64,000 nt of DNA from Eledone cirrhosa (Eukaryota): assembly GCA_964016885.1 (NCBI GenBank), contig OZ024744.1, positions 18,352,001 to 18,416,000 on the forward strand, given 5' to 3'. Numbering within the stretch: the stretch's first letter is position 1; every line of letters starts with the position of its first letter. Of this stretch, positions 34,051 to 60,949 are shown in pieces. The notes beneath the pieces are model-generated. The model was not told where the DNA came from, did not search any database, and saw nothing but the letters and a program-made list of their open reading frames with translations. A program made the translations under genes and the position numbers.

Positions 34051-37000
34051 CTGTGTGTTTCTGTATGGCTGTGTCACTGTGTATGTCACAGTGTGTTTCT
34101 GTATGTCTGTGTCACTGTCTATGTCACTGTATGTTTCTGAATGTCTGTGTCACTGTGTATGTCACTGTGTGTTTGTGTATGTCTGTGTCACTGTATATTT
34201 CTGTATGTCTGTGTCACTGTGTATGTCACTGTGTGTTTCTGTATGTCTGTGTCACTGTGTATGTCATTGTATCTTTGTGTATGTCTGTGTCACTGTGTAT
34301 GTCACTGTATGTTTCTGTAAATTTGTGTCACTGTGTATGTCACTGTGTGTTTCTGTATGTCTGTGTCTCTGTGTATGTCACTGTATGTTTCTGTATGTCT
34401 GTTTCACTGTGTATGTCACTGTGTCTCTATGTATGTCTGTGTCACTCTCTATGTCACTGTATATTTCTGTATGTCTGTGTCACTGTGTATATCACTGTAT
34501 GTTTCTGTATGTCTGTGTCACTGTGTATGTCACTGTGTGTTTCTGTATGGCTGTGTCACTGTGTATGTCACAGTGTGTTTCTGTATGTCTGTGTCACTGT
34601 CTATGTCACAGTGTGTTTCTGTATGTCTGTGTCACTGTCTATGTCACTGTATGTTTCTGAATGTCTGTGTCAGTGTGTATGTCACTGTGTGTTTGTGTAT
34701 GTCTGTGTCACTGTATGTTTCTGTATGTCTGTGTCACTGTGTATGTCACTGTGTGTTTCTGTATGTCTGTGTCACTGTGTATGACATTGTATCTTTGTGT
34801 ATGTCTGTGTCACTGTGTATGTCACTGTATGTTTCTGTATGTTTGTGTCACTGTGTATGTCACTGTGTGTTTCTGTATGTTTGTGTCTCAGTGTATGTCA
34901 CTGTATGTTTCTGTATGTCTGTTTCACTGTGTATGTCACTGTGTCTTTATGTATGTCTGTGTCACTCTGTATGTCACTGTATATTTCTGTATGTCTGTGT
35001 CACTGTGTATGTCACTGTATGTTTCTGTATGTCTGTGTCACTGTGTATGTCACTGTGTGTTTCTGTATGTCTGTGTCACTGTGTATATCAATGTGTGTTT
35101 CTGTATCTCTGTGTCACGGTGTATGTCACTGCATGTTTGTGTATGTCTGTGTGACTGTGTATGTCACTGTGTGTTTCTGTATGGCTGTGTCACTGTGTAT
35201 GTCACTGTATCTTTGTGTATGTCTGTGTCACTGTGTATGTCACAGTGTGTTTCTGTATGTCTGTGTCACTGTATATGTCACTGTATGTTTCTGAATGTCT
35301 GTGTCACTGTGTATGTCACTGTGTGTTTCTGTATGTCTGTGTCACGGTGTATGTCACTGTATGTTTGTGTGTGACTCTGTCACTGTGTGTTTGTGTATGT
35401 CTGTGTCACTGTAAGTTTCTGTATGTCTGTGTCACTGTGTATGTCACTGTGTGTTTCTGGATGTCTGTGTCACTGTGTATGTCATTGTATCTTTGTGTAT
35501 GTCTGTGTCACTGTGTATGTCACTGTATGTTTCTGTAAGTTTGTGTCACTGTGTATGTCACTGTGTGTTTCTGTATGTCTGTGTCTCTGTGTATGTCACT
35601 GTATGTTTCTGTATGTCTGTTTCACTGTGTATGTCACTGTGTCTTTATGTATGTCTGTGTCACTCTGTATGTCACTGTATATTTCTGTATGTCTGTGTCA
35701 CTGTGTATATCACTGTATGTTTCTGTATGTCTGTGTCACTGTGTATGTCACTGTGTGTTTCTGTATGGCTGTGTCACTGTGTATGTCACTGTATCTTTCT
35801 GTATGTCTGTGTCACTGTGTATGTCACAGTGTGTTTGTGTATGTCTGTGTCACTGTCTATGTCACTGTATGTTTCTGAATGTCTGTGTCACTGTGTATGT
35901 CACTGTGTGTTTGTGTATGTCTGTGTCACTGTATGTTTCTGTATGTCTGTGTCACTGTGTATGTCACTGTATGCTTCTGTATGTCTGTGTCACTGTGTAA
36001 GTCATTGTATCTTTGTGTATGTCACTGTATGTTTCTGTATGTTTGTGTCACTGTGTATGTCACTGTGTGTTTCTGTATGTCTGTGTCTCTGTGTATGTCA
36101 CTGTATGTTTCTGTATGTCTGTGTCACTGTGTATGTCACTGTATGTTTCTGTATGTCTGTGTCACTGTGTATGTCACTGTATGTTTCTTTATGTCTGTGT
36201 CACTGTGTATGTCACTGTATGTTTCTGTATGTCTGTGTCACTGTGTATGTCACTGTATCTTTGTGTATGTCTGTGTCCCTGTGTATGTCACTGTATGTTT
36301 CTGTATGTTTGTGTCACTGTGTATGTCACTGTGTGTTTCTGTATGTCTGTGTCACTGTGTATGTCACTGTGTGTTTCTGTATGTCTGTGTGACTGTGTAT
36401 GTCACTGTGTGTTTGTGTATGTCTGTGTCACTGTATGTTTCTGTATGTCTGTGTCACTGTGTATGTCACTGTGTGTTTCTGTATGTATGTGTCACCGTGT
36501 ATGTCACTGTATCTTTGTGTATGCCTGTATCACTGTGTATGTCACTGTGTGTTTCTGTATGTTTGTGTCACTGTGTATGTCACTAAATGTTTGTGTGTGT
36601 CTGTGTCTCTGTGTATGTCACTGTGTGTTTGCGTGTGTCTGTGTCACTGTGTATGTCACTGTGTGTTTCTGTATGTCTGTGTGACTGTGTATGTCACTGT
36701 TTGTTTGTGTATGTCTGTGTCACTGTGTGTGTTTATGTATGTCTGTGTCACTGTGTATGTCATTGCATCTTTGTGTATGTCTGTCTCACTCTGTATGTCA
36801 CTGTGTGTTTCTGCATGTCTGTGTCACTGTGTATGTCACTGTGTGTTTCTGTATGTCTGTGTCACGGTGTATGTCACTGTATGTTTGTGTATGACTGTGT
36901 CACTGTGTATGTCACTGTGTGTTTGTGTATGTCTGTGTCACTGTATGTTTCTGTATGTCTGTGTCACTGTGTATGTCACTGTGTGTTTCTGTATGTCTGT

Positions 37001-39595: not shown

Positions 39596-42500
39596 CTATG
39601 TCACTGTATATTTGTGTATGTCTGTGTCACTGTGTATGTCACTGTGTGTTTCTGTATGTCTGTGTCACTGTCTATGTCACTGTATGTTTCTGAATGTCTG
39701 TGTCACCGTGTATATCACTGTATCTTTATGTATGTCTGTGTCACTGTATATGTCACTGTATCTTTGTATATGTCTACGTCACTGTGTATGTCACTGTGTG
39801 TTTCTGTATGTCTGTGTCTTTGTGTATGTCACTGTACCTTTCTGTATATCTGTGTCACTGTGTATGTCACTGTGTGTTTCTGTATGTCTGTGTCACTGTG
39901 TATGTCACTGTGTGTTTCTGTATATCTGTGTCTCTGTGTATGTCACTGTAACGTTGTGTATCTGTGTCACTGTGTATGTCACTGTATCTTTGTGTATGTC
40001 TGTGTCACTGTGTATGTCACTGTGTGTTTCTGTATGTCTGTGTCACTGTGTATGTCACTGTATCTCTCTGTATGTCTGTGTCACTGTCTATGTCGCTGTA
40101 TGTTTCTGAATGTCTGTGTCACTGTGTATGTCACTGTGTGTTTCTGTATGTCTGTGTCACGGTGTATGTCACTGTATGTTTGTGTGTGTCTATGTCACTG
40201 TGTATGTCACTGTGTGTTTCTGTATGTCTGTGTCACTGTCTATGTCACTGTATGTTTCTGAATGTCTGTGTCACTGTGTATGTCACTGTGTGTTTCTGTA
40301 TATCTGTGTCACGGTGTATGTCACTGAATGTTTGTGTGTGTCTGTGTCACTGTGTATGTCACTGTGTGTTTCTGTATATCTGTGTCACGGTGTATGTCAC
40401 TGAATGTTTGTGTGTGTCTGTGTCACTGTGTTTGTCACTGTGTGTTTCTGTATGTCTGTGTCACCGTGTATGTCACGGTATCTTTGTATATGCCTGTGTC
40501 ACTGTGTATGTCACTGTGTGTTTCTGTATTTCTGTGTCACTGTGTATGTCACTGTGTGTTTCTGTATGTTTGTGTCACTGTGTATGTCACTAAATGTTTG
40601 TGTGTGTCTGTGTCTCTGTGTATGTCACTGTGTGTTTGCGTGTGTCTGTGTCACCGTGTATGTCACTGTGTGTTTCTGTATGTCTGTGTCACTGTGTATG
40701 TCACCGTGTGTTTGTGTATGTCTGTGTCATTGTGTGTGTTTCTGTATGTCTGTGTCACTGTGTATGTCACTGTATGTTTCTGTATGTATGTGTCACTGTG
40801 TATGTCACTGTATCTTTGTGTATGTCTGTGTCACTCCGTATGTCACTGTGTGTTTCTGTATGTCTGTGTCAATGTGTATGTCACTGTGTGTTTCTGTATG
40901 TCTGTGTCACTGTGTATGTCACTGTATATTTGTGTATGTCTGTTTCACTGTGTATGTCACTGTGTGTTTCTGTATGTCTGTGTCACTCTGTATGTCACTG
41001 TATGTTTCTGAATGTTTGTGTCACTGTGTATGTCACTGTGTGTTTGCGTGTGTCTGTGTCACTGTGTATGTCACTGTGTGTTTCTGTATGTCTGTGTGAC
41101 AGTGTATGTCACTCTGTGTTTGTGTATGTCTGTGTCACTGTGTGTGTTTCTGTATGTCTGTGTCACTGTGTATGTCATTGTATCTTTGTGTATGTATGTG
41201 TCACTGTGTATGTCACTGTATCTTTGTGTATGTCTGTGTCATTTTGTATGTCACTGTGTGTTTCTGTATGTCTGTGTCACTGTCTATGTCACTGTATGTT
41301 TCTGAATGTCTGTGTCACTGTGTATGTCACTGTGTGTTTCTGTATATCTGTGTCACGGTGTATGTCACTGAATGTTTGTGTGTGTCTGCGTCACTGTGTA
41401 TGTCACTGTGTGTTTCTGTATGTCTGTGTCTCTGTGTATGTAACTGTATCTTTGTGTATGTCGTTGTCACGGTGTATGTCACTAAATGTTTGTGTGTGTC
41501 TGTGTATCTGTGTATGTCACTGTGTGTTTGCGTGTGTCTGTGTCACTGTGTATGTCACTGTGTGTTTCTGTATGTCTGTGTGACTGTGTATGTCACTAGG
41601 TGTTTGTGTATGTCTGTGTCACTGCATGTTTCTGAATGTCTGTGTCACTGTGTATGTCACTGTGTGTTTCTGTATGTATGTGTCACCGTGTATGTCACTG
41701 TATCTTTGTGTATGCCTGTGTCACTGTGTATGTCACTGTGTGTTTCTGTATGTCGGTGTCACTGTGTATGTCACTGTGTGTTTCTGTATGTTTGTGTCAC
41801 TGTGTATGTCATTAAATGTTTGTGTGTGTCTGTGTCTCTGTGTATGTCACTGTGTGTTTGCGTGTGTCTGTGTCACTGTGTATGTCACTGTGTGTTTCTG
41901 TATGTCTGTGTGACTGTGTATGTCACTGTGTGTTTGTGTATGTCTGTGTCACTGTGTGTGTTTCTGTATGTCTGTGTCAATGTGTATGTCACTGTGTGTT
42001 TCTGTATGTCTGTGTCACTGTGTATGTCACTGTATGTTTCTGTATGTCTGTTTCACTGTGTATGTCACTGTGTGTTTCTGTATGTCTGTGTCACTCTGTA
42101 TGTCACTGTATGTTTCTGAATGTTTGTGTCACTGTGTATGTCCCTGTGTGTTTGCGTGCGTCTGTGTCACTGTGTATGTCACTGTGTGTTTCTGTATGTC
42201 TGTGTGACTGTGTATGTCACTCTGTCTTTGTGTATGTCTGTGTCACTGTGTGTGTTTCTGTATGTCTGTGTCACTGTGTATGTCATTGTATCTTTGTGTA
42301 TGTATGTGTCACTGTGTGTGTCACTGTATCATTGTGTATGTCTGTGTCATTGTGTATGTCACTGTGTGTTTCTGTATATCTGTGTCTCTGTGTATGTTAC
42401 TTTATCTTTGTGTATGTCTGTGTCACTGTGTATGTCACTGTATCTTTGTGTATGTCTGTGTCACGGTGTATATCACTGTATGTTTGTGTATGTCTGTGTC

Positions 42501-46200: not shown

Positions 46201-49200
46201 TCACTGTGTGTTTCTGTATGTCTGTGTCACTGTGTATGTCACTGTGTGTTTCTGTATATCTGTGTCTCTGTGTATGTCACTGTAACGTTGTGTATCTGTG
46301 TCACTGTGTATGTCACTGTATCTTTGTGTATGTCTGTGTCACTGTGTATGTCACTGTGTGTTTCTGTATGTATGTGTCACGGTGTATGTCACTGTATGTT
46401 TGTGTATGTCTGTGTCACTGTGTATGTCATTGTGAGTTTCTGTATGTCTGTGTCACTGTGTATGTCACTGTATCTTTGTGTATGTCTGTGTCACTGTGTA
46501 TGTCACTGTGTGTTTCTGTATGTCTGTGTCACTGTGTATGTCACTGTATCTCTCTGTATGTCTGTGTCACTGTCTATGTCGCTGTATGTTTCTGAATGTC
46601 TGTGTCACTGTGTATGTCACTGTGTGTTTCTGTATGTCTGTGTCACGGTGTATGTCACTGTATGTTTGTGTGTGTCTATGTCACTGTGTATGTCACTGTG
46701 TGTTTCTGTATGTCTGTGTCACTGTCTATGTCACTGTATGTTTCTGAATGTCTGTGTCACTGTGTATGTCACTGTGTGTTTCTGTATATCTGTGTCACGG
46801 TGTATGTCACTGAATGTTTGTGTGTGTCTGTGTCACTGTGTATGTCACTGTGTGTTTCTGTATATGTGTGTCACGGTGTATGTCACTGAATGTTTGTGTG
46901 TGTCTGTGTCACTGTGTTTGTCACTGTGTGTTTCTGTATGTCTGTGTCACCGTGTATGTCACGGTATCTTTGTATATGCCTGTGTCACTGTGTATGTCAC
47001 TGTGTGTTTCTGTATTTCTGTGTCACTGTGTATGTCACTGTGTGTTTCTGTATGTTTGTGTCACTGTGTATGTCACTAAATGTTTGTGTGTGTCTGTGTC
47101 TCTGTGTATGTCACTGTGTGTTTGAGTGTGTCTGTGTCACCGTGTATGTCACTGTGTGTTTCTGTATGTCTGTGTCACTGTGTATGTCACCGTGTGTTTG
47201 TGTATGTCTGTGTCATTGTGTGTGTTTCTGTATGTCTGTGTCACTGTGTATGTCACTGTATGTTTCTGTATGTATGTGTCACTGTGTATGTCACTGTATC
47301 TTTGTGTATGTCTGTGTCACTCCGTATGTCACTGTGTGTTTCTGTATGTCTGTGTCAATGTGTATGTCACTGTGTGTTTCTGTATGTCTGTGTCACTGTG
47401 TATGTCACTGTATATTTGTGTATGTCTGTTTCACTGTGTATGTCACTGTGTGTTTCTGTATGTCTGTGTCACTCTGTATGTCACTGTATGTTTCTGAATG
47501 TTTGTGTCACTGTGTTTGTCACTGTGTGTTTGCGTGTGTCTGTGTCACTGTGTATGTCACTGTGTGTTTCTGTATGTCTGTGTGACAGTGTATGTCACTC
47601 TGTGTTTGTGTATGTCTGTGTCACTGTGTGTGTTTCTGTATGTTTGTGTCACTGTGTATGTCACTGTGTGTTTCTGTATATATGTGTCTCTGTGTATGTT
47701 ACTTTATCTTTGTGTATGTCTGTGTCACTGTGTATGTCACTGTATCTTTGTGTATGTCTGTGTCACGGTGTATATCACTGTATGTTTGTGTATGTCTGTG
47801 TCACTCTATATGTCACTGTATGTTTGTGTATGTCTGTGTGACTGTGTATGTCACTGTATGTTACAGTATGTCTGTGTCACTGTGTATGTCACTGTGTGTT
47901 TCTGTATGTCTGCGTCTCTGTGTATGTCACTGTAACGTTGTGTATCTTTGTGTCACTGTGTATGTCACTGTATCTTTGTGTATGTCTGTGTCACTGTGTA
48001 TGTCATTGTGAGTTTCTGTATGTCTGTGTCACTGTGTATGTCACTGTATCTTTGTGTATGTCTGTGTCACTGTGTATGTCACTGTGTGTTTCTGTATGTC
48101 TGTGTCACTGTGTATGTCACTGTATCTCTCTGTATGTCTGTGTCACTGCCTATGTCACTGTATCTTTGTGTATGTCTGTGTCACTGTATATGTCACTGTA
48201 TCTTTGTGTATGTCTACGTCACTGTGTATGTCACTGTGTGTTTCTGAATGTCTGTGTCTTTGTGTATGTCACTGTACATTTGTGTAATGTCTGTGTCACT
48301 GTGTATGTCACTGTGTGTTTCTGTATGTCTGTGTCACTGTGTGTTTCTGTATATCTGCGTCTCTGTGTATGTCACTGTAACGTTGTGTATCTTTGTGTCG
48401 CTGTGTATGTCACTGTATCTTTGTGTATGTCTGTGTCACTGTGTATGTCACTGTGTGTTTCTGTATGTCTGTGTCACTGTGTATGTCACTGTATCTCTCT
48501 GTATGTCTGTGTCACTGCCTATGTCACTGTATCTTTGTGTATGTCTGCGTCACTGTGTATGTCACTGTGTGTTTCTGTATGTCTGTGTCTCTGTGTATCT
48601 GTCACTGTATCTTTGTGTATGTCTGTATCACTGTGTATGTCACTGTGTGTTTCTGTATGTCTGTGTGACTGTGTATGTCACTGTGTGTTTGTGTATGTAT
48701 GTGTCACTGTGTGTGTTTCTGTATGTCTGTGTCACTGTGTATGTCACTGTATGTTTCTGTATGTATGTGTCACTGTGTATGTCACTGTATCTTTGTGTAT
48801 GTCTGTGTCACTATGTATGACACTTTGTGTTATTGTATGTATGTGTCAATGTGTATGTCACTGTGTGTTTCTGTATGTCTGTGTCACTGTGTATGTCACT
48901 GTATGTTTCTGTATGTCTGTTTCACTGTGTATGTCACTGTGTGTTTCTGTATGTCTGTGTCACTCTGTATGTCACTGTATGTTTATGTATGTATGTGTCA
49001 CTGTGTATGTCACAGTGTGTTTCTGTATGTCTGTGTCACTGTGTATGTCACTGTATCTCTCTGTATGTCTGTGTCACTGTCTATGTCACTGTATCTTTGT
49101 GTATGTCTGCGTCACTGTGTATGTCACTGTGTGTTTCTGTATGGCTCTGTCTCTGTGTATGTCACTGGATCTTTGTGTATGTCTGTATCACTGTTTATGT

Positions 49201-52200
49201 CACTGTGTGTTTCTGTATGTCTGTTTGACTCTGTATGTCACTGTGTGTTTCTGTATGTCTGTGTCACTGTGTATGTCACTGTGTGTTTCTGTATGTCTGT
49301 GTCACTGTCTATGTCGCTCTATGTTTCTGAATGTGTGTGTCACTGTTTATGTCACTGTGTGTTTCTGTATGTCTGTGTCACGGTGTATGTCACTGTATGT
49401 TTGTGTGTGTCTATGTCACTGTGTATGTCACTGTGTGTTTCTGTATGTCTGTGTCACCGTGTATGTCACTGTATCTTTGTGTATGCCTGTGTCACTGTGT
49501 ATGTCACTGTGTGTTTCTGTATGTCTGTGTCACTGTGTATGTCACTGTGTGTTTCTGTATGTCTGTGGCACTGTGTATGTCACTGTGTGTTTCTGTATGT
49601 CTGTGTCACTGTCTATGTCGCTGTATGTTTCTGAATGTCTGTGTCACTGTGTATGTCACTGTGTGTTTCTGTATGTCTGTGTCACTGTCTATGTCACTGA
49701 ATGTTTCTGAATGTCTGTGTCACTGTGTATGTCACTGTGTGTTTCTGTATATCTGTGTCACGGTGTATGTCACTGAATGTTTGTGTGTGTCTGTGTCACT
49801 GTGTTTGTCACTGTGTGTTTCTGTATGTCTGTGTCACCGTGTATGTCACGGTATCTTTGTGTATGCCTGTGTCACTGTGTATGTCACTGTGTGTTTCTGT
49901 GTTTCTGTGTCAGTGTGTATGTCACTGTGTGTTTCTGTATGTTTGTGTCACTGTGTATGTCACTAAATGTTTGTGTGTGTCTGTGTCTCTGTGTATGTCA
50001 CTGTGTGTTTGCGTGTGTCTGTGTCACTGTGTATGTCACTGTGTGTTTCTGTATGTCTGTGTCACTGTGTATGTCACTGTGTGTTTGTGTATGTCTGTGT
50101 CACTGTATGTTTCTGAATGTCTGTGTCACTGTGTATGTCACTGTGTGTTTCCGTATGTATGTGTCACCGTGTATGTCACTGTATCTTTGTGTATGCCTGT
50201 GTCACTGTGTATGTCACTGTGTGTTTCTGTATGTCTGTGTCACTGTGTATGTCACTGTGTGTTTCTGTATGTTTGTGTCATTTTGTATGTCACTAAATGT
50301 TTGTGTGTGTCTGTGTCTCTGTGTATGTCACTGTGTGTTTGCGTGTGTCTGTGTCACTGTGTATGTCACTGTGTGTTTCTGTATGTCTGTGTGACTGTGT
50401 ATGTCACTGTGTGTTTGTGTATGTCTGTGTCACTGTGTGTGTTTCTGTATGTCTGTGTCACTGTGTATGTCACTGTATGTTTCTGTATGTATGTGTCACT
50501 GTGTATGTCACTGTATCTTTGTGTATGTCTGTGTCACTCTGTATGTCACTGTGTGTTTCTGTATGTCTGTGTCAATGTGTATGTCACTGTGTGTTTCTGT
50601 ATGTCTGTGTCACTGTGTATGTCACTGTATGTTTATGTATGTCTGTTTCACTGTGTATGTCACTGTGTGTTTCTGTATGTCTGTGTCACTGTGTATGTCA
50701 CTGTATCTCTCTGTATGTCTGTGTCACTGTCTATGTCACTGTATCTTTGTGTATGTCTGCGTCACTGTGTATGTCACTGTGTGTTTCTGTATGTCTGTGT
50801 CTCTGTGTATGTCACTGTATCTTTGTGTATGTCTGTATCACTGTGTATGTCACTAAATGTTTGTGTGTGTCTGTGTCACTGTGTTTGTCACTGTGTGTTT
50901 CTGTATGTCTGCGTCACTGTGTATGCCACTGTGTGTTTTTGTATGTCTGTGTCTCTGTGTATGTCACTGTATCTTTGTGTATGTCTGTATCACTGTGTAT
51001 GTCACTGTGTGTTTCTGTATGTCTGTGTCACTGTGTATGTCACTGTGTGTTTCTGTATGTCTGTGTCACTGTCTATGTCGCTGTATGTTTCTGAATGTCT
51101 GTGTCACTGTGTATGTCACTGTGTGTTTCTGTATGTCTGTGTCACGGTGTATGTCACTGTATGTTTGTGTGTGTCTATGTCACTTTGTATGTCACTGTGT
51201 GTTTCTGTATGTCTGTGTCACCGTGTATGTCAATGTATCTTTGTGTATGCCTGTGTCACTGTGTATGTCACTGTGTGTTTCTGTATGTCTGTGTCACTGT
51301 GTATGTCACTGTGTGTTTCTGTATGTCTGTGTCACTGTCTATGTCGCTGTATGTTTCTGAATGTCTGTGTCAATGTGTATGTCACTGTGTGTTTCTGTAT
51401 GTCTGTGTCACTGTCTATGTCACTGTATGTTTCTGAATGTATGTGTCACTGTGTATGTCACTCTGTGTTTTTGTATATCTGTGGCACGGTGTATGTCACT
51501 GAATGTTTGTGTGTGTCTGTGTCACTCTGTTTGTCACTGTGTGTTTCTGTATGTCTGTGTAACCGTGTATGTTAGGTATCTTTGTATATGCCTGTGTCAC
51601 TGTGTATGTCACTGTGTGTTTCTGTATTTCTGTGTCACTGTGTATGTCACTGTGTGTTTCTGTATGTTTGTGTCACTGTGTATGTCACTAAATGTTTGTG
51701 TGTGTCTGTGTCTCTGTGTATGTCACTGTGTGTTTGCGTGTGTCTGTGTCACTGTGTATGTCACTGTGTGTTTCTGTATGTCTGTGTGACTGTGTATGTC
51801 ACTCTGTGTTTGTGCATGTCTGTGTCACTGTGTGTGTTTCTGTATGTCTGTGTCACTGTGTATGTCATTGTATCTTTGTGTTTGAATGTGTCACTGTGTA
51901 TGTCACTGTGTGTTTGTGTATACCTGTGTCACTGTGTATGTTACTGTGAGTTTCTGTATGTCTGTGTCACTGTGTACGTCACTGTATATTTCTGTATGTC
52001 TGTGTCAGTGTGTATGTCACTGGTTGATTCTGTATGTCTGTGTCACACTGTATATCACTGTATCTTTGTGTAGGTCTGTGTCACCGTGTATGTCACTGTA
52101 TCTTTCTGTATGTCTGTGTCACTGTATATGTCACTGTATCTTTGTGTATGTCTACGTCACTGTGTATGTCACTGTGTGTTTCTGTATGTCTGTGTCTTTG

Positions 52201-55200: not shown

Positions 55201-58200
55201 GTATGTCTGTGTGACAGTGTATGTCACTCTGTGTTTGTGTATGTCTGTGTCACTGTGTGTGTTTCTGTATGTCTGTGTCACTGTGTATGTCATTCTATCT
55301 TTGTGTATGTATGTGTCACTGTGTATGTCACTGTATCTTTGTGTATGTCTGTGTCATTTTGTATGTCACTGTGTGTTTCTGTATGTTTGTGTCACTGTGT
55401 ATGTCACTGTGTGTTTCTGTATATCTGTGTCTCTGTGTATGTTACTTTATCTTTGTGTATGTCTGTGTCACTGTGTATGTCACTGTATCTTTGTGTATGT
55501 CTGTGTCACGGTGTATATCACTGTATGTTTGTGTATGTCTGTGTCACTCTATATGTCACTGTATGTTTCTGTATGAATGTGTCACTGTGTATGTCAATGT
55601 GTGTTTCTGTATCTCTGTATCACGGTGTATGTCACTGTATGTTTGTGTATGTCTGTGTGACAGTGTATGTCACTGTATGTTACAGTATGTCTGTGTCACT
55701 GTGTATGTCACTGTGTGTTTCTGTATGTCTGCGTCTCTGTGTATGTCACTGTAACGTTGTGTATCTTTGTGTCACTGTGTATGTCACTGTATCTTTGTGT
55801 ATGTCTGTGTCACTGTGTATGTCACTGTGTGTTTCTGTATGTCTGTGTCACTGTGTATATCACTGTATCTCTCTGTATGTCTGTGTCACTGCCTATGTCA
55901 CTGTATCTTTGTGTATGTCTGTGTCACTGTATATGTCACTGTATCTTTGTGTATGTCTACGTCACCGTGTATGTCACTGTGTGTTTCTGAATGTCTGTGT
56001 CTTTGTGTATGTCACTGTACCTTTGTGTAATGTCTGTGTCACTGTGTATGTCACTGTGTGTTTCTGTATGTCTGTGTCACTGTGTATGTCACTGTGTGTT
56101 TCTGTATATCTGCGTCTCTGTGTATGTCACTGTAACGTTGTGTATCTTTGTGTCACTGTGTATGTCACTGTATCTTTGTGTATGTCTGTGTCACTGTGTA
56201 TGTCATTGTGAGTTTCTGTATGTCTGTGTCACTGTGTATGTCACTGTATCTTTGTGTATGTCTGTGTCACTGTGTATGTCACTGTGTGTTTCTGTATGTC
56301 TGTGTCACTGTGTATGTCACTGTATCTCTCTGTATGTCTGTGTCACTGCCTATGTCACTGTATCTTTGTGTATGTCTGCGTCACTGTGTATGTCACTGTG
56401 TGTTTCTGTATGTCTGTGTCTCTGTGTATGTCACTGTATCTTTGTGTATGTCTGTATCACTGTGTATGTCACTGTGTGTTTCTGTATGTCTGTGTGACTG
56501 TGTATGTCACTGTGTGTTTGTGTATGTCTGTGTCACTGTGTGTGTTTCTGTATGTCTGTGTCACTGTGTATGTCACTGTATGTTTCTGTATGTATGTGTC
56601 ACTGTGTATGTCACTGTATCTTTGTGTATGTCTGTGTCACTCTGTATGTCACTTTGTGTTTCTGTATGTCTGTGTCACTGTGTATGTCACTGTATGTTTC
56701 TGTATGTCTGTTTCACTGTGTATGTCACTGTGTGTTTCTGTATGTCTGTGTCACTCTGTATGTCACTGTATGTTTATGTATGTATGTGTCACTGTGTATG
56801 TCACAGTGTGTTTCTGTATGTCTGTGTCACTGTGTATGTCACTGTATCTCTCTGTATGTCTGTGTCACTGTCTATGTCACTGTATCTTTGTGTATGTCTG
56901 CGTCACTGTGTATGTCACTGTGTGTTTCTGTATGGCTCTGTCTCTGTGTATGTCACTGGATCTTTGTGTATGTCTGTATCACTGTGTATGTCACTGTGTG
57001 TTTCTGTATGTCTGTTTGACTCTGTATGTCACTGTGTGTTTCTGTATGTCTGTGTCACTGTGTATGTCACTGTGTGTTTCTGTATGTCTGTGTCACTGTC
57101 TATGTCGCTCTATGTTTCTGAATGTGTGTGTCACTGTTTATGTCACTGTGTGTTTCTGTATGTCTGTGTCACGGTCTATGTCACTGTATGTTTGTGTGTG
57201 TCTATGTCACTGTGTATGTCACTGTGTGTTTCTGTATGTCTGTGTCACCGTGTATGTCACTGTATCTTTGTGTATGCCTGTGTCACTGTGTATGTCACTG
57301 TGTGTTTCTGTATGTCTGTGTCACTGTGTATGTCACTGTGTGTTTCTGTATGTCTGTGGCACTGTGTATGTCACTGTGTGTTTCTGTATGTCTGTGTCAC
57401 TGTCTATGTCGCTGTATGTTTCTGAATGTCTGTGTCACTGTGTATGTCACTGTGCGTTTCTGTATGTCTGTGTCACTGTCTATGTCACTGAATGTTTCTG
57501 AATGTCTGTGTCACTGTGTATGTCACTGTGTGTTTCTGTATATCTGTGTCACGGTGTATGTCACTGAATGTTTGTGTGTGTCTGTGTCACTGTGTTTGTC
57601 ACTGTGTGTTTCTGTATGTCTGTGTCACCGTGTATGTCACGGTATCTTTGTGTATGCCTGTGTCACTGTGTATGTCACTGTGTGTTTCTGTATTTCTGTG
57701 TCACTGTGTATGTCACTGTGTGTTTCTGTATGTTTGTGTCACTGTGTATGTCACTAAATGTTTGTGTGTGTCTGTGTCTCTGTGTATGTCACTGTGTGTT
57801 TGCGTGTGTCTGTGTCACTGTGTATGTCACTGTGTGTTTCTGTATGTCTGTGTCACTGTGTATGTCACTGTGTGTTTGTGTATGTCTGTGTCACTGTATG
57901 TTTCTGAATGTCTGTGTCACTGTGTATGTCACTGTGTGTTTCCGTATGTATGTGTCACCGTGTATGTCACTGTATCTTTGTGTATGCCTGTGTCACTGTG
58001 TATGTCACTGTGTGTTTCTATATGTCTGTGTCACTGTGTATGTCACTGTGTGTTTCTGTATGTTTGTGTCATTTTGTATGTCACTAAATGTTTGTGTGTG
58101 TCTGTGTCTCTGTGTATGTCACTGTGTGTTTGCGTGTCTCTGTGTCACGGTGTATGTCACTGTGTGTTTCTGTATGTCTGTGTGACTGTGTATGTCACTG

Positions 58201-58700
58201 TGTGTTTGTGTATGTCTCTGTCACTGTGTGTGTTTCTGTATGTCTGTGTCACTGTGTATGTCACTGTATGTTTCTGTATGTATGTGTAACTGTGTATGTC
58301 ACTGTATCTTTGTGTATGTCTGTGTCACTGTGTATGTCACTGTGTGTTTCTGTATGTCTGTGTCAATGTGTATGTCACTGTGTGTTTCTGTATGTCTGTG
58401 TCACTGTGTATGTCACTGTATGTTTATGTATGTCTGTTTCACTGTGTATGTCACTGTGTGTTTCTGTATGTCTGTGTCACTGTGTATGTCACTGTATCTC
58501 TCTGTATGTCTGTGTCACTGTCTATGTCACTGTATCTTTGTGTATGTCTGCGTCACTGTGTATGTCACTGTGTGTTTCTGTATGTCTGTGTCTCTGTGTA
58601 TGTCACTGTATCTTTGTGTATGTCTGTATCACTGTGTATGTCACTGAATGTTTGTGTGTGTCTGTGTCACTGTGTTTGTCACTGTGTGTTTCTGTATGTC
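43250..58700 (+). repeat. Tandem ~7.7-kb duplication (about 43250-50905 and 50905-58700)
   Basis: Offsets 7655 (43440/51095, 43706/51361), 7667 (44740/52407, 46596/54263) and 7791 (49331/57122, 50297/58088). Shared private variants GTTAGGTATC, CTGGTTGATTC, CACTTATC. Confidence 0.9.
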
Positions 58701-58781
58701 TGTGTCACCGTGTATGTCACGGTATCTTTGTGTATGCCTGTGTCACTGTGTATGTCACTGTGTGTTTCTGTATTTCTGTGT

Positions 58782-58900
58782 CATACACAGTGAAACAGAC
58801 ATACAGAAACATACAGTGACACAGACATACACAAACACACAGTGACATACACAGTCACACAGACATACAGAAACACACAGTGACATACACAGTGACAAAG
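58782..58900 (-). repeat. 119-bp inverted satellite segment (left arm of a perfect inverted repeat)
   Basis: The sequence switches to the CA-rich strand (CATACACAGTGAAACAGAC...AGTGACAAAG). Its reverse complement matches 59310-59428 at 119/119 positions by manual comparison. Confidence 0.97.
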
Positions 58901-59309
58901 TGTGTATGTCACTGTATATTTGTGTATGTCTGTGTCACTGTGTATGTCACTGTGTGTTTCTATATGTCTGTGTCACTGTCTATGTCACTGTATGTTTCTG
59001 AATGTCTGTGTAACTGTGTATGTCACTGTGTGTTTCTGTGTGTCTGTGTCACGGTGTATGTCACTGTATGTTTGTGTGTGTCTGTGTCATTGTGTATGTC
59101 ACTGTGTGTTTCTGTATGTCGCTGTCACCGTGTATGTCACTGTATCTTTGTGTATGCCTGTGTCACTGTGTATGTCACTGTGTGTTTCTGTATGTCTGTG
59201 TCACTGTGTATGTCACTGTGTGTTTCTGTATGTTTGTGTCACTGTGTATGTCACTAAATGTTTGTGTGTGTCTGTGTCTCTGTCTACGTCACTGTGTGTT
59301 TGCGTGTGT

Positions 59310-59428
59310 CTTTGTCACTGTGTATGTCACTGTGTGTTTCTGTATGTCTGTGTGACTGTGTATGTCACTGTGTGTTTGTGTATGTCTGTGTCACTGTATG
59401 TTTCTGTATGTCTGTTTCACTGTGTATG
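59310..59428 (+). repeat. Right arm and probable template of the inverted segment
   Basis: CTTTGTCACT...GTGTGACT...26-bp monomer...GTCTGTTTCACTGTGTATG carries the same rare variant combination as the inverted segment. Confidence 0.93.
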
Positions 59429-60949
59429 TCACTGTGTGTTTCTGTATGTATGTGTCACCGTGTATGTCACTGTATCTTTGTGTATGCCTTTGTCACTGTG
59501 TATGTCACTGTGTGTTTCTGTATGTTTGTGTCACTGTGCATGTCACTAAATGTTTGTGTGTGTCTGTGTCTCTGTGTATGTCACTGTGTGTTTGCGTGTG
59601 TCTGTGTCACTGTGTATGTCACTGTGTGTTTCTGTATGTCTGTGTGACTGTGTATGTCACTCTGTGTTTGTGTATGTCTGTGTCACTGTGTGTGTTTCTG
59701 TATGTCTGTGTCACTGTGTATGTCATTGTATCTTTGTGTTTGTATGTGTCACTGTGTATGTCACTGTGTGTTTGTGTATACCTGTGTCACTGTGTATGTT
59801 ACTGTGAGTTTCTGTATGTCTGTGTCACTGTGTACGTCACTGTATATTTCTGTATGTCTGTGTCAGTGTGTATGTCACTGGGTGATTCTGTATGTATGTG
59901 TCACACTGTATATCACTGTATCTTTGTGTAGGTCTGTGTCACCGTGTATGTCACTGTATCTTTATGTATGTCTGTGTCACTGTATATGTCACTGTATCTT
60001 TGTGTATGTCTACGTCACTGTGTATGTCACTGTGTGTTTCTATATGTCTGTGTCACCGTGTATGTCACTGTATCTTTGTGTATGCCTGTGTCACTGTGTA
60101 TGTCAGTGTGTGTTTCTGTATGTCTGTGTCACTGTGTATGTCATTGTGTGTTTCTGTATGTCTGTGGCACTGTGTATGTCACTTTGTGTTTCTGTATGTC
60201 TGTGTCACTGTCTATGTCGCTGTATGTTTCTGAATGTCTGTGTCACTGTGTATGTCACTGTGTGTTTCTGTATGTCTGTGTCACTGTCTATGTCACTGTA
60301 TGTTTCTGAATGTCAGTGTCACTGTGTATGTCACTGTGTGTTTCTGTATATCTGTGTCACGGTGTATGTCACTGAATGTTTGTGTGTGTCTGTGTCACTG
60401 TGTTTGTCACTGTGTGTTTCTGTATGTCTGTGTCACCGTGTATGTCACGGTATCTTTGTGTATGCCTGTGTCACTGTGTATGTCACTGTGTGTTTCTGTA
60501 TTTCTGTGTCACTGTGTATGTCACTGTGTGTTTCTGTATGTTTGTGTCACTGTGTATGTCACTAAATGTTTGTGTGTGTCTGTGTCTCTGTGTATGTCAC
60601 TGTGTGTTTGCGTGTGTCTGTGTCACTGTGTATGTCACTGTGTGTTTCTGTATGTCTGTGTCACTGTGTATGTCACTGTGTGTTTGTGTATGTCTGTGTC
60701 ACTGTATGTTTCTGAATGTCTGTGTCACTGTGTATGTCACTGTGTGTTTCCGTATGTATGTGTCACCGTGTATGTCACTGTATCTTTGTGTATGCCTGTG
60801 TCACTGTGTATGTCACTGTGTGTTTCTGTATGTCTGTGTCACTGTGTATGTCACTGTGTGTTTCTGTATGTTTGTGTCATTGTGTATGTCACTAAATGTT
60901 TGTCTGTGTCTGTGTCTCTGTGTATGTCACTGTGTGTTTGCGTGTGTCT

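Follow-up and report, generated by a model that had tools for sequence, protein, structure and literature searches.

This locus raises the question of how a short piece of satellite DNA came to lie in reverse within an array that otherwise runs in a single orientation. The window, that is, the whole stretch of 64,000 nucleotides analyzed here (Eledone cirrhosa, contig OZ024744.1, positions 18,352,001–18,416,000), belongs to an array of a 38-bp satellite, for which a literature search for a named counterpart returned only unrelated matches and which is therefore left unnamed. The array was surveyed over positions 17,702,001–19,500,000 of the contig, without a hole (genome, 3.0 Gb), and its limits fall at 17742060 and 19339376. 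These ~1.60 Mb are pure satellite: no transposon insertions were seen, and no non-satellite stretch longer than 45 bp was found except for one 200-N gap at 18,996,398.

The initial annotation had described a single strand switch in the window, formed by an exact inverted copy of a site downstream and placed at a break in the register of the array, and all three elements of this description were confirmed. No reverse-strand run other than the insert at 58782–58900 exists in the 64 kb, and this insert is the reverse complement of 59310–59428 at 119/119 bases, with a 0-base extension on either side. If the shared CA at the left junction is assigned to the left flank, 117 of these bases are new. 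The sequence variants of the insert are those of the donor and differ from those of the adjacent monomers. Over the whole array, exactly four reverse runs were detected, each of them the same 119-bp insert; no other reverse-strand occurrence of any of 670 common satellite 10-mers was found in the ~1.60 Mb searched, a screen that shorter or very diverged inversions would escape. A chance origin is thus excluded. A junction-spanning sequence of 201 bp has four matches at 100% on the contig, and both junction k-mers occur four times each in 1.464 Mb. One strand switch survives among ~42,000 monomers, whereas 345 kb contain 242 ends of same-direction duplications. The insert and its junctions are referred to below as the scar, and the features of the locus are listed in Table 1.

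Table 1. Features of the scar and its surroundings (window positions unless contig positions are indicated).
Feature	Position	Strand	Description
38-bp satellite	1–64000	+	Part of a single-orientation array of ~1.60 Mb, contig OZ024744.1 (G000:C28), ~17.742–19.339 Mb
Unscarred left-flank relative	47627–50911	+	Departs from the scar lineage at least 81 bp before the insert; likely a recombinant without the scar
Left flank	58634–58783	+	Sub-family differs from that of the right flank; exact paralogues at 57554–57703 and 60362–60511
Left junction, likely primer end	58776–58783	+	2-bp microhomology (CA) inside a 6/8 match
Inverted insert	58782–58900	-	Some three reversed satellite monomers, one of them of 26 bp; reverse complement of 59310–59428, exact and maximal; four identical copies in the array
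Right junction	58900–58901		Blunt, 0-base extension; the flank restarts one base off monomer phase
Spacer, 409 bp	58901–59309	+	Sub-family is that of the donor; 15 unscarred paralogues at 7 mismatches or fewer
Scar-private base	58962	+	A in 4/4 scarred copies, G in 15/15 unscarred paralogues; marks a single origin
Donor (template)	59310–59428	+	Intact, same sequence as the insert; sole 0-mismatch match within the window; in the whole array 7 exact copies, of which 4 lie 409 bp from a scar
Likely priming site at far end of donor	59427–59434	+	Interrupted palindrome TGTCA of the monomer; its reverse complement matches 58776–58783 at 6/8; role probable
Four scar copies	C28 starts 18272337, 18280134, 18410782 (window copy), 18418695		Reverse runs; same insert, identical junctions

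Insert and donor are both present at all four scars, so the event represents a copy gain of the inverted segment. The initial annotation had expected the donor site to be the only perfect match. This holds inside the window, where the runner-up (at 36347) has 2 mismatches, but not array-wide, where the donor 119-mer has seven exact forward copies. All seven belong to one local family, and not to a multitude of equally perfect matches across the array, which had been named as grounds for rejecting the reading. Four of the seven lie beside scars and two, at window-relative positions 72332 and 86223, sit in an unscarred sister unit. The remaining one, at 81114, was derived from a scar's neighbor by a 13,891-bp tandem duplication (C28:18418981–18446746, 0.04% divergence) that starts at 66981, 168 bp past the second scar, and leaves the insert out. 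The closest unscarred paralogues of the spacer run on into the donor at the identical 409-bp offset. Because seven exact donors exist array-wide, the template 409 bp away is the most parsimonious choice, short of proven, and a sister copy may have served instead. The insert/donor region has a strong predicted fold (-114 kcal/mol, z -13), as is expected for any inverted satellite piece.

The two junctions are of different character, in agreement with the initial annotation. At the left junction, the flank ends in CTGTGTCA and the corresponding sequence on the template side is CAGTGACA; the two share the terminal CA, which here proved to lie within a 6/8 match. When forward-to-reverse joins within 2.5 kb are drawn at random from this array, a match of at least 2 bp has a probability of 0.059, and one of at least 2 bp plus 6/8 a probability of 0.0024 (~0.2%), the 8-base window having been chosen post hoc. 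The source of the match is the monomer's interrupted palindrome TGTCA, with 61,667 occurrences in 1.464 Mb. At the right junction, which is blunt, no base is shared with the template side (0 bp). A primer folding back from the right end matches the sequence preceding the donor at 0/10 bases, and a fold-back inversion from an adjacent hairpin was rejected on this ground and because the insert carries the variants of the donor and not those of adjacent monomers. The two ends miss the monomer phase by a single base, for which the chance is ~3/38. The register break is real, because the exact left-flank paralogues (Table 1) continue differently from 58901 onward; additionally, the sub-families of the left and right flanks differ right up to the junction.

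Both junctions are identical to the base in all four scars. Since the four copies also share the private A at 58962, they go back to one event, which was copied later by a 7.8–7.9-kb duplication and then by a ~140-kb duplication. Scars 7,913 bp apart differ at 22/3,820 flanking positions (0.58%) and at 0/119 positions of the insert; scars 138 kb apart show 7/7,980 and 6/7,827 differences (0.08–0.09%). The latter lie in a repeated block of ~140–180 kb with many internal indels, whose seam falls at ~39600–39983 of the window (C28 ~18.25–18.56 Mb, ~0.1% divergence). This block may be a genuine tandem duplication or the product of an assembly that joined two haplotypes; in both cases at least two independent, diverged copies of the scar exist. 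The closest unscarred right flank has 8–10 differences per 1,141 bases. Judged by these divergences, the age of the scar falls between ~0.6% and 0.7–0.9% pairwise divergence, which is a relative date only. The scar is thus old relative to array turnover; the description of it as recent in the initial annotation was not upheld, as it predates both the duplication whose flanks differ at 22/3,820 positions and the later ~140-kb duplication.

Active copying between insert and donor is not indicated, since 0 differences over four independent 119-bp lineages are expected with ~25% probability at this age. The scar was also considered as a fragile site and rejected: a crude scan, which missed the known end at 66981, showed no excess of duplication ends around the scars (1 observed vs 1.2 expected within 150 bp, 5 vs 3.1 within 500 bp).

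A pre-event allele was not found in the array, where the full left flank (58484–58783) occurs only with the scar (four copies at 0–1 mismatch; the next has 12). Each of the four closest unscarred right-flank paralogues has the left-flank 150-mer (0–1 mismatch) 1,337 bp upstream, which suggests a loss of 1,336 bp between the two ends if the nearest unscarred sister unit (window-relative 70437–71923) resembles the earlier state. The size of this loss is uncertain: the four paralogues are related copies, exact left-flank 150-mers are also found 1,610 bp downstream, and the longer left flank is restricted to the scar, so that one extra recombination is needed. The candidate lost interval contains no exact donor, and its best donor-like sequence has 4 mismatches.

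The unscarred unit at 47627–50911 was considered as the pre-event allele and rejected, as it nests inside the scar lineage. Over 2,048 bp it has 2 differences to the second scar copy, compared with 14 between scar and scar; 12 of 15 variable sites join it to the second scar against the first, and none joins the two scars against it. Two of five polarised sites are shared derived states. Its continuation has exact copies at 12 other places, and the upstream sequence is different at each of them. By its sequence relationships it is most simply explained as a likely recombinant that lost the scar, although gene conversion in the flank of the first scar could mimic part of the pattern.

We favor, with a probability of about 0.6, a single template switch at a stalled fork or a break, with a primed left junction, a backward copy of 117 bases and a homology-free join on the right. 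The left 3′ end (CTGTGTCA) would anneal through the 6/8 match to the same-sense strand at 59427–59434 and copy 117 bases backwards from the donor; the new strand would then detach and be joined to 58901 without homology. The DNA between the two ends would be lost, 1,336 bp of it if the nearest unscarred sister unit reflects the earlier state. This reading is favored because the left-junction match is unlikely by chance (0.0024), the right junction is blunt and the donor is intact. Against it, the 2-bp match alone has a chance of 0.059, and a homology-free return does not account for the near-in-phase join. The left side is the probable priming side, and the enzymes proposed are suggested by analogy with other organisms only. 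Microhomology at the priming junction, as in MMBIR/FoSTeS or hybrid primed synthesis, is present (2 bp within 6/8), and microhomology at the return junction, as in MMBIR/FoSTeS, is absent (0 bp). The blunt return fits a second primed switch less well than it fits a hybrid NHEJ return. A route specific to the satellite is doubtful: a break at a monomer palindrome would be followed by backward priming on the palindrome of a neighboring unit and by in-register re-annealing that seals the inverted piece as a hairpin-guided loop, and the array would then tend to shed such scars by recombination. If this were true, shedding would explain why a single event survives in 1.6 Mb, as well as the adjacent scar-free recombinant.

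Capture of a fragment is possible but rather unlikely. A short piece of the donor site (a flap or an Okazaki-sized fragment), likely from the sister chromatid, would have been joined by NHEJ into a break in reverse orientation, and an in-phase deletion, coupled to the capture or separate from it, would have produced the register break. Both junction sizes (2 bp and 0 bp) are within the range of NHEJ, DNA fragments have been described to be captured at breaks (PMC11724301), and ends lying one base off monomer phase (chance ~3/38) are as expected from a single cut. However, capture has no need for the 6/8 match at the left junction, and a plain insertion does not give flanks whose sub-families differ up to the junction. 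An in-place inversion accompanied by a deletion on either side, in which a second identical donor copy once located between the flanks was flipped, was already disputed by the initial annotation and is improbable. The seven exact donors, the frequent tandem duplications of 4–14 kb nearby and the absence of the pre-event allele from the array leave room for such a copy. Nevertheless, three or four breaks are required, and no inspected left-flank paralogue has an exact donor at that place; the inversion is disfavored by the intact state of the donor and by the candidate lost interval, which holds only the 4-mismatch donor paralogue.

The initial annotation had proposed template switching or polymerase theta end joining. 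The templated inverted copy at a register break stands, and polymerase theta fits poorly on insert size and template distance. In the latter case the right end would snap back and the final join would use the 2-bp CA. Inverted templated insertions are a known product of this enzyme (PMC7165422), and one junction does carry 2-bp microhomology; yet the tract is unbroken over 117–119 bp and comes from 409 bp away, as against reported insertions of 3–30 bp with templates typically within 30 bp, and the snap-back primer matches the template at 0/10 bases. We consider this route quite improbable. Least probable is an artefact of assembly, caused by a fold-back or chimeric read. Nine public sequencing runs were listed, the best of which had a word share of 0.53. 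No bridging read or contig was present among the listed pieces of public runs, whose contigs have little or no depth at 58773–58786, so that this is no real test. A chimeric read is disfavored because at least two independent, diverged scar copies exist: one bad read does not yield four copies with a common private base in flanks that differ at 22/3,820 positions, and the nearest assembly gap is ~580 kb away.

The favored template switch was compared with published systems, whose supplementary size distributions could shift the size comparisons. It resembles the four-point template switch of type 1-4-3-2, in which a reverse-complement fragment is copied from just past the return point and an inverted repeat results (PMC5453318; PMC7954356). 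This type is reported to account for 31% of 794 high-confidence human-chimp events (PMC5453318). As in that class, an intact template lies beyond the return point, 409 bp past 58901, and at the same offset in unscarred paralogues. The class also has point 1 ahead of point 4 in the ancestral sequence, an order to which the four sister units point with their left 150-mer 1,337 bp upstream, but to which the exact copies 1,610 bp downstream do not. In contrast to the surveyed events, whose copied fragments have a median of 12 bp and a maximum of 128 bp (PMC7954356), the scar comprises 119 bp, a 409-bp spacer and a probable loss of kilobase size; moreover, the survey covers unmasked, non-repeat sequence, whereas the scar is inside a satellite array. 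The same derivative structure is seen in the loss plus inverted duplication (local 2-jump) class, with 472 instances in cancer genomes (PMC7025897). Unlike the cancer events as described there, the scar is sub-kilobase, located in a satellite and inherited through later duplications, and its loss is a probable one only.

Hybrid insertions at yeast breaks, of 2 to ~150 bp, are primed at one end and captured by NHEJ at the other (PMC11724301). The scar is similar in having one junction with imperfect inverted microhomology and one that is NHEJ-like. It differs in that the primed end in yeast folds back on itself (41-nt loop in the account of PMC11724301), whereas the fold-back side of the scar is without homology, so that priming would come from the other end onto DNA past the break. 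Polymerase theta insertions, as summarized in PMC7165422, are likewise locally templated, can be inverted and show short microhomology, but they measure 3–30 bp, with templates typically within 30 bp and first-round synthesis rarely exceeding 10 bp; the present insert is ~4 times the upper range and its template more than 10 times farther away. Orientation changes inside arrays are described for human (10.64898/2026.07.22.740206) and Tribolium madens (PMC13081366) satellites, and in the latter one inversion site has been amplified to thousands of near-identical copies. Those accounts report hundreds of switches or kilobase-to-megabase inverted blocks, in contrast to one 119-bp event in four copies over 1.60 Mb here, and macro-dyad symmetry of the Tribolium type (kilobase inverted sub-arrays at many sites) was not observed. 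A narrow, title-level literature search found nothing on a templated inversion of less than a kilobase that was followed through duplications of its array.

The observation in the initial annotation is thus real and correctly described: it is one old event of a known kind, present four times. Its mechanism would be ordinary, of a class common in human and yeast data, and the scar is likely a neutral passenger, for which we propose no function. Its value is that of a lineage marker that orders events in an otherwise unalignable array: scar formation was followed by the 7.8–7.9-kb duplication and then by probable loss from one lineage and the ~140-kb duplication. The junction k-mers could also be used to type array haplotypes in a population.

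Several other features were recorded along the way. A 4,543-bp higher-order unit is repeated in about five near-identical tandem copies at C28 ~18,474,950–18,497,450. The head-to-head junction pattern, searched genome-wide with exact motifs only and thus as a weak screen, gave 21 matches, namely the four scars and 17 outside the array on contigs C4, C9 and C12; at C12:48725299–48725969 the pattern led to seven copies of a 22-bp near-perfect palindrome spaced 88–139 bp apart. Several further, unrelated tandem repeats of short period occur in the megabases on either side of the array (C28 15.0–17.5 and 20.0–23.0 Mb), and the region looks satellite-rich. Two sampled stretches just outside the array begin (positions 1–70) with sequence that, by eye, resembles a tRNA or a tRNA-derived repeat.
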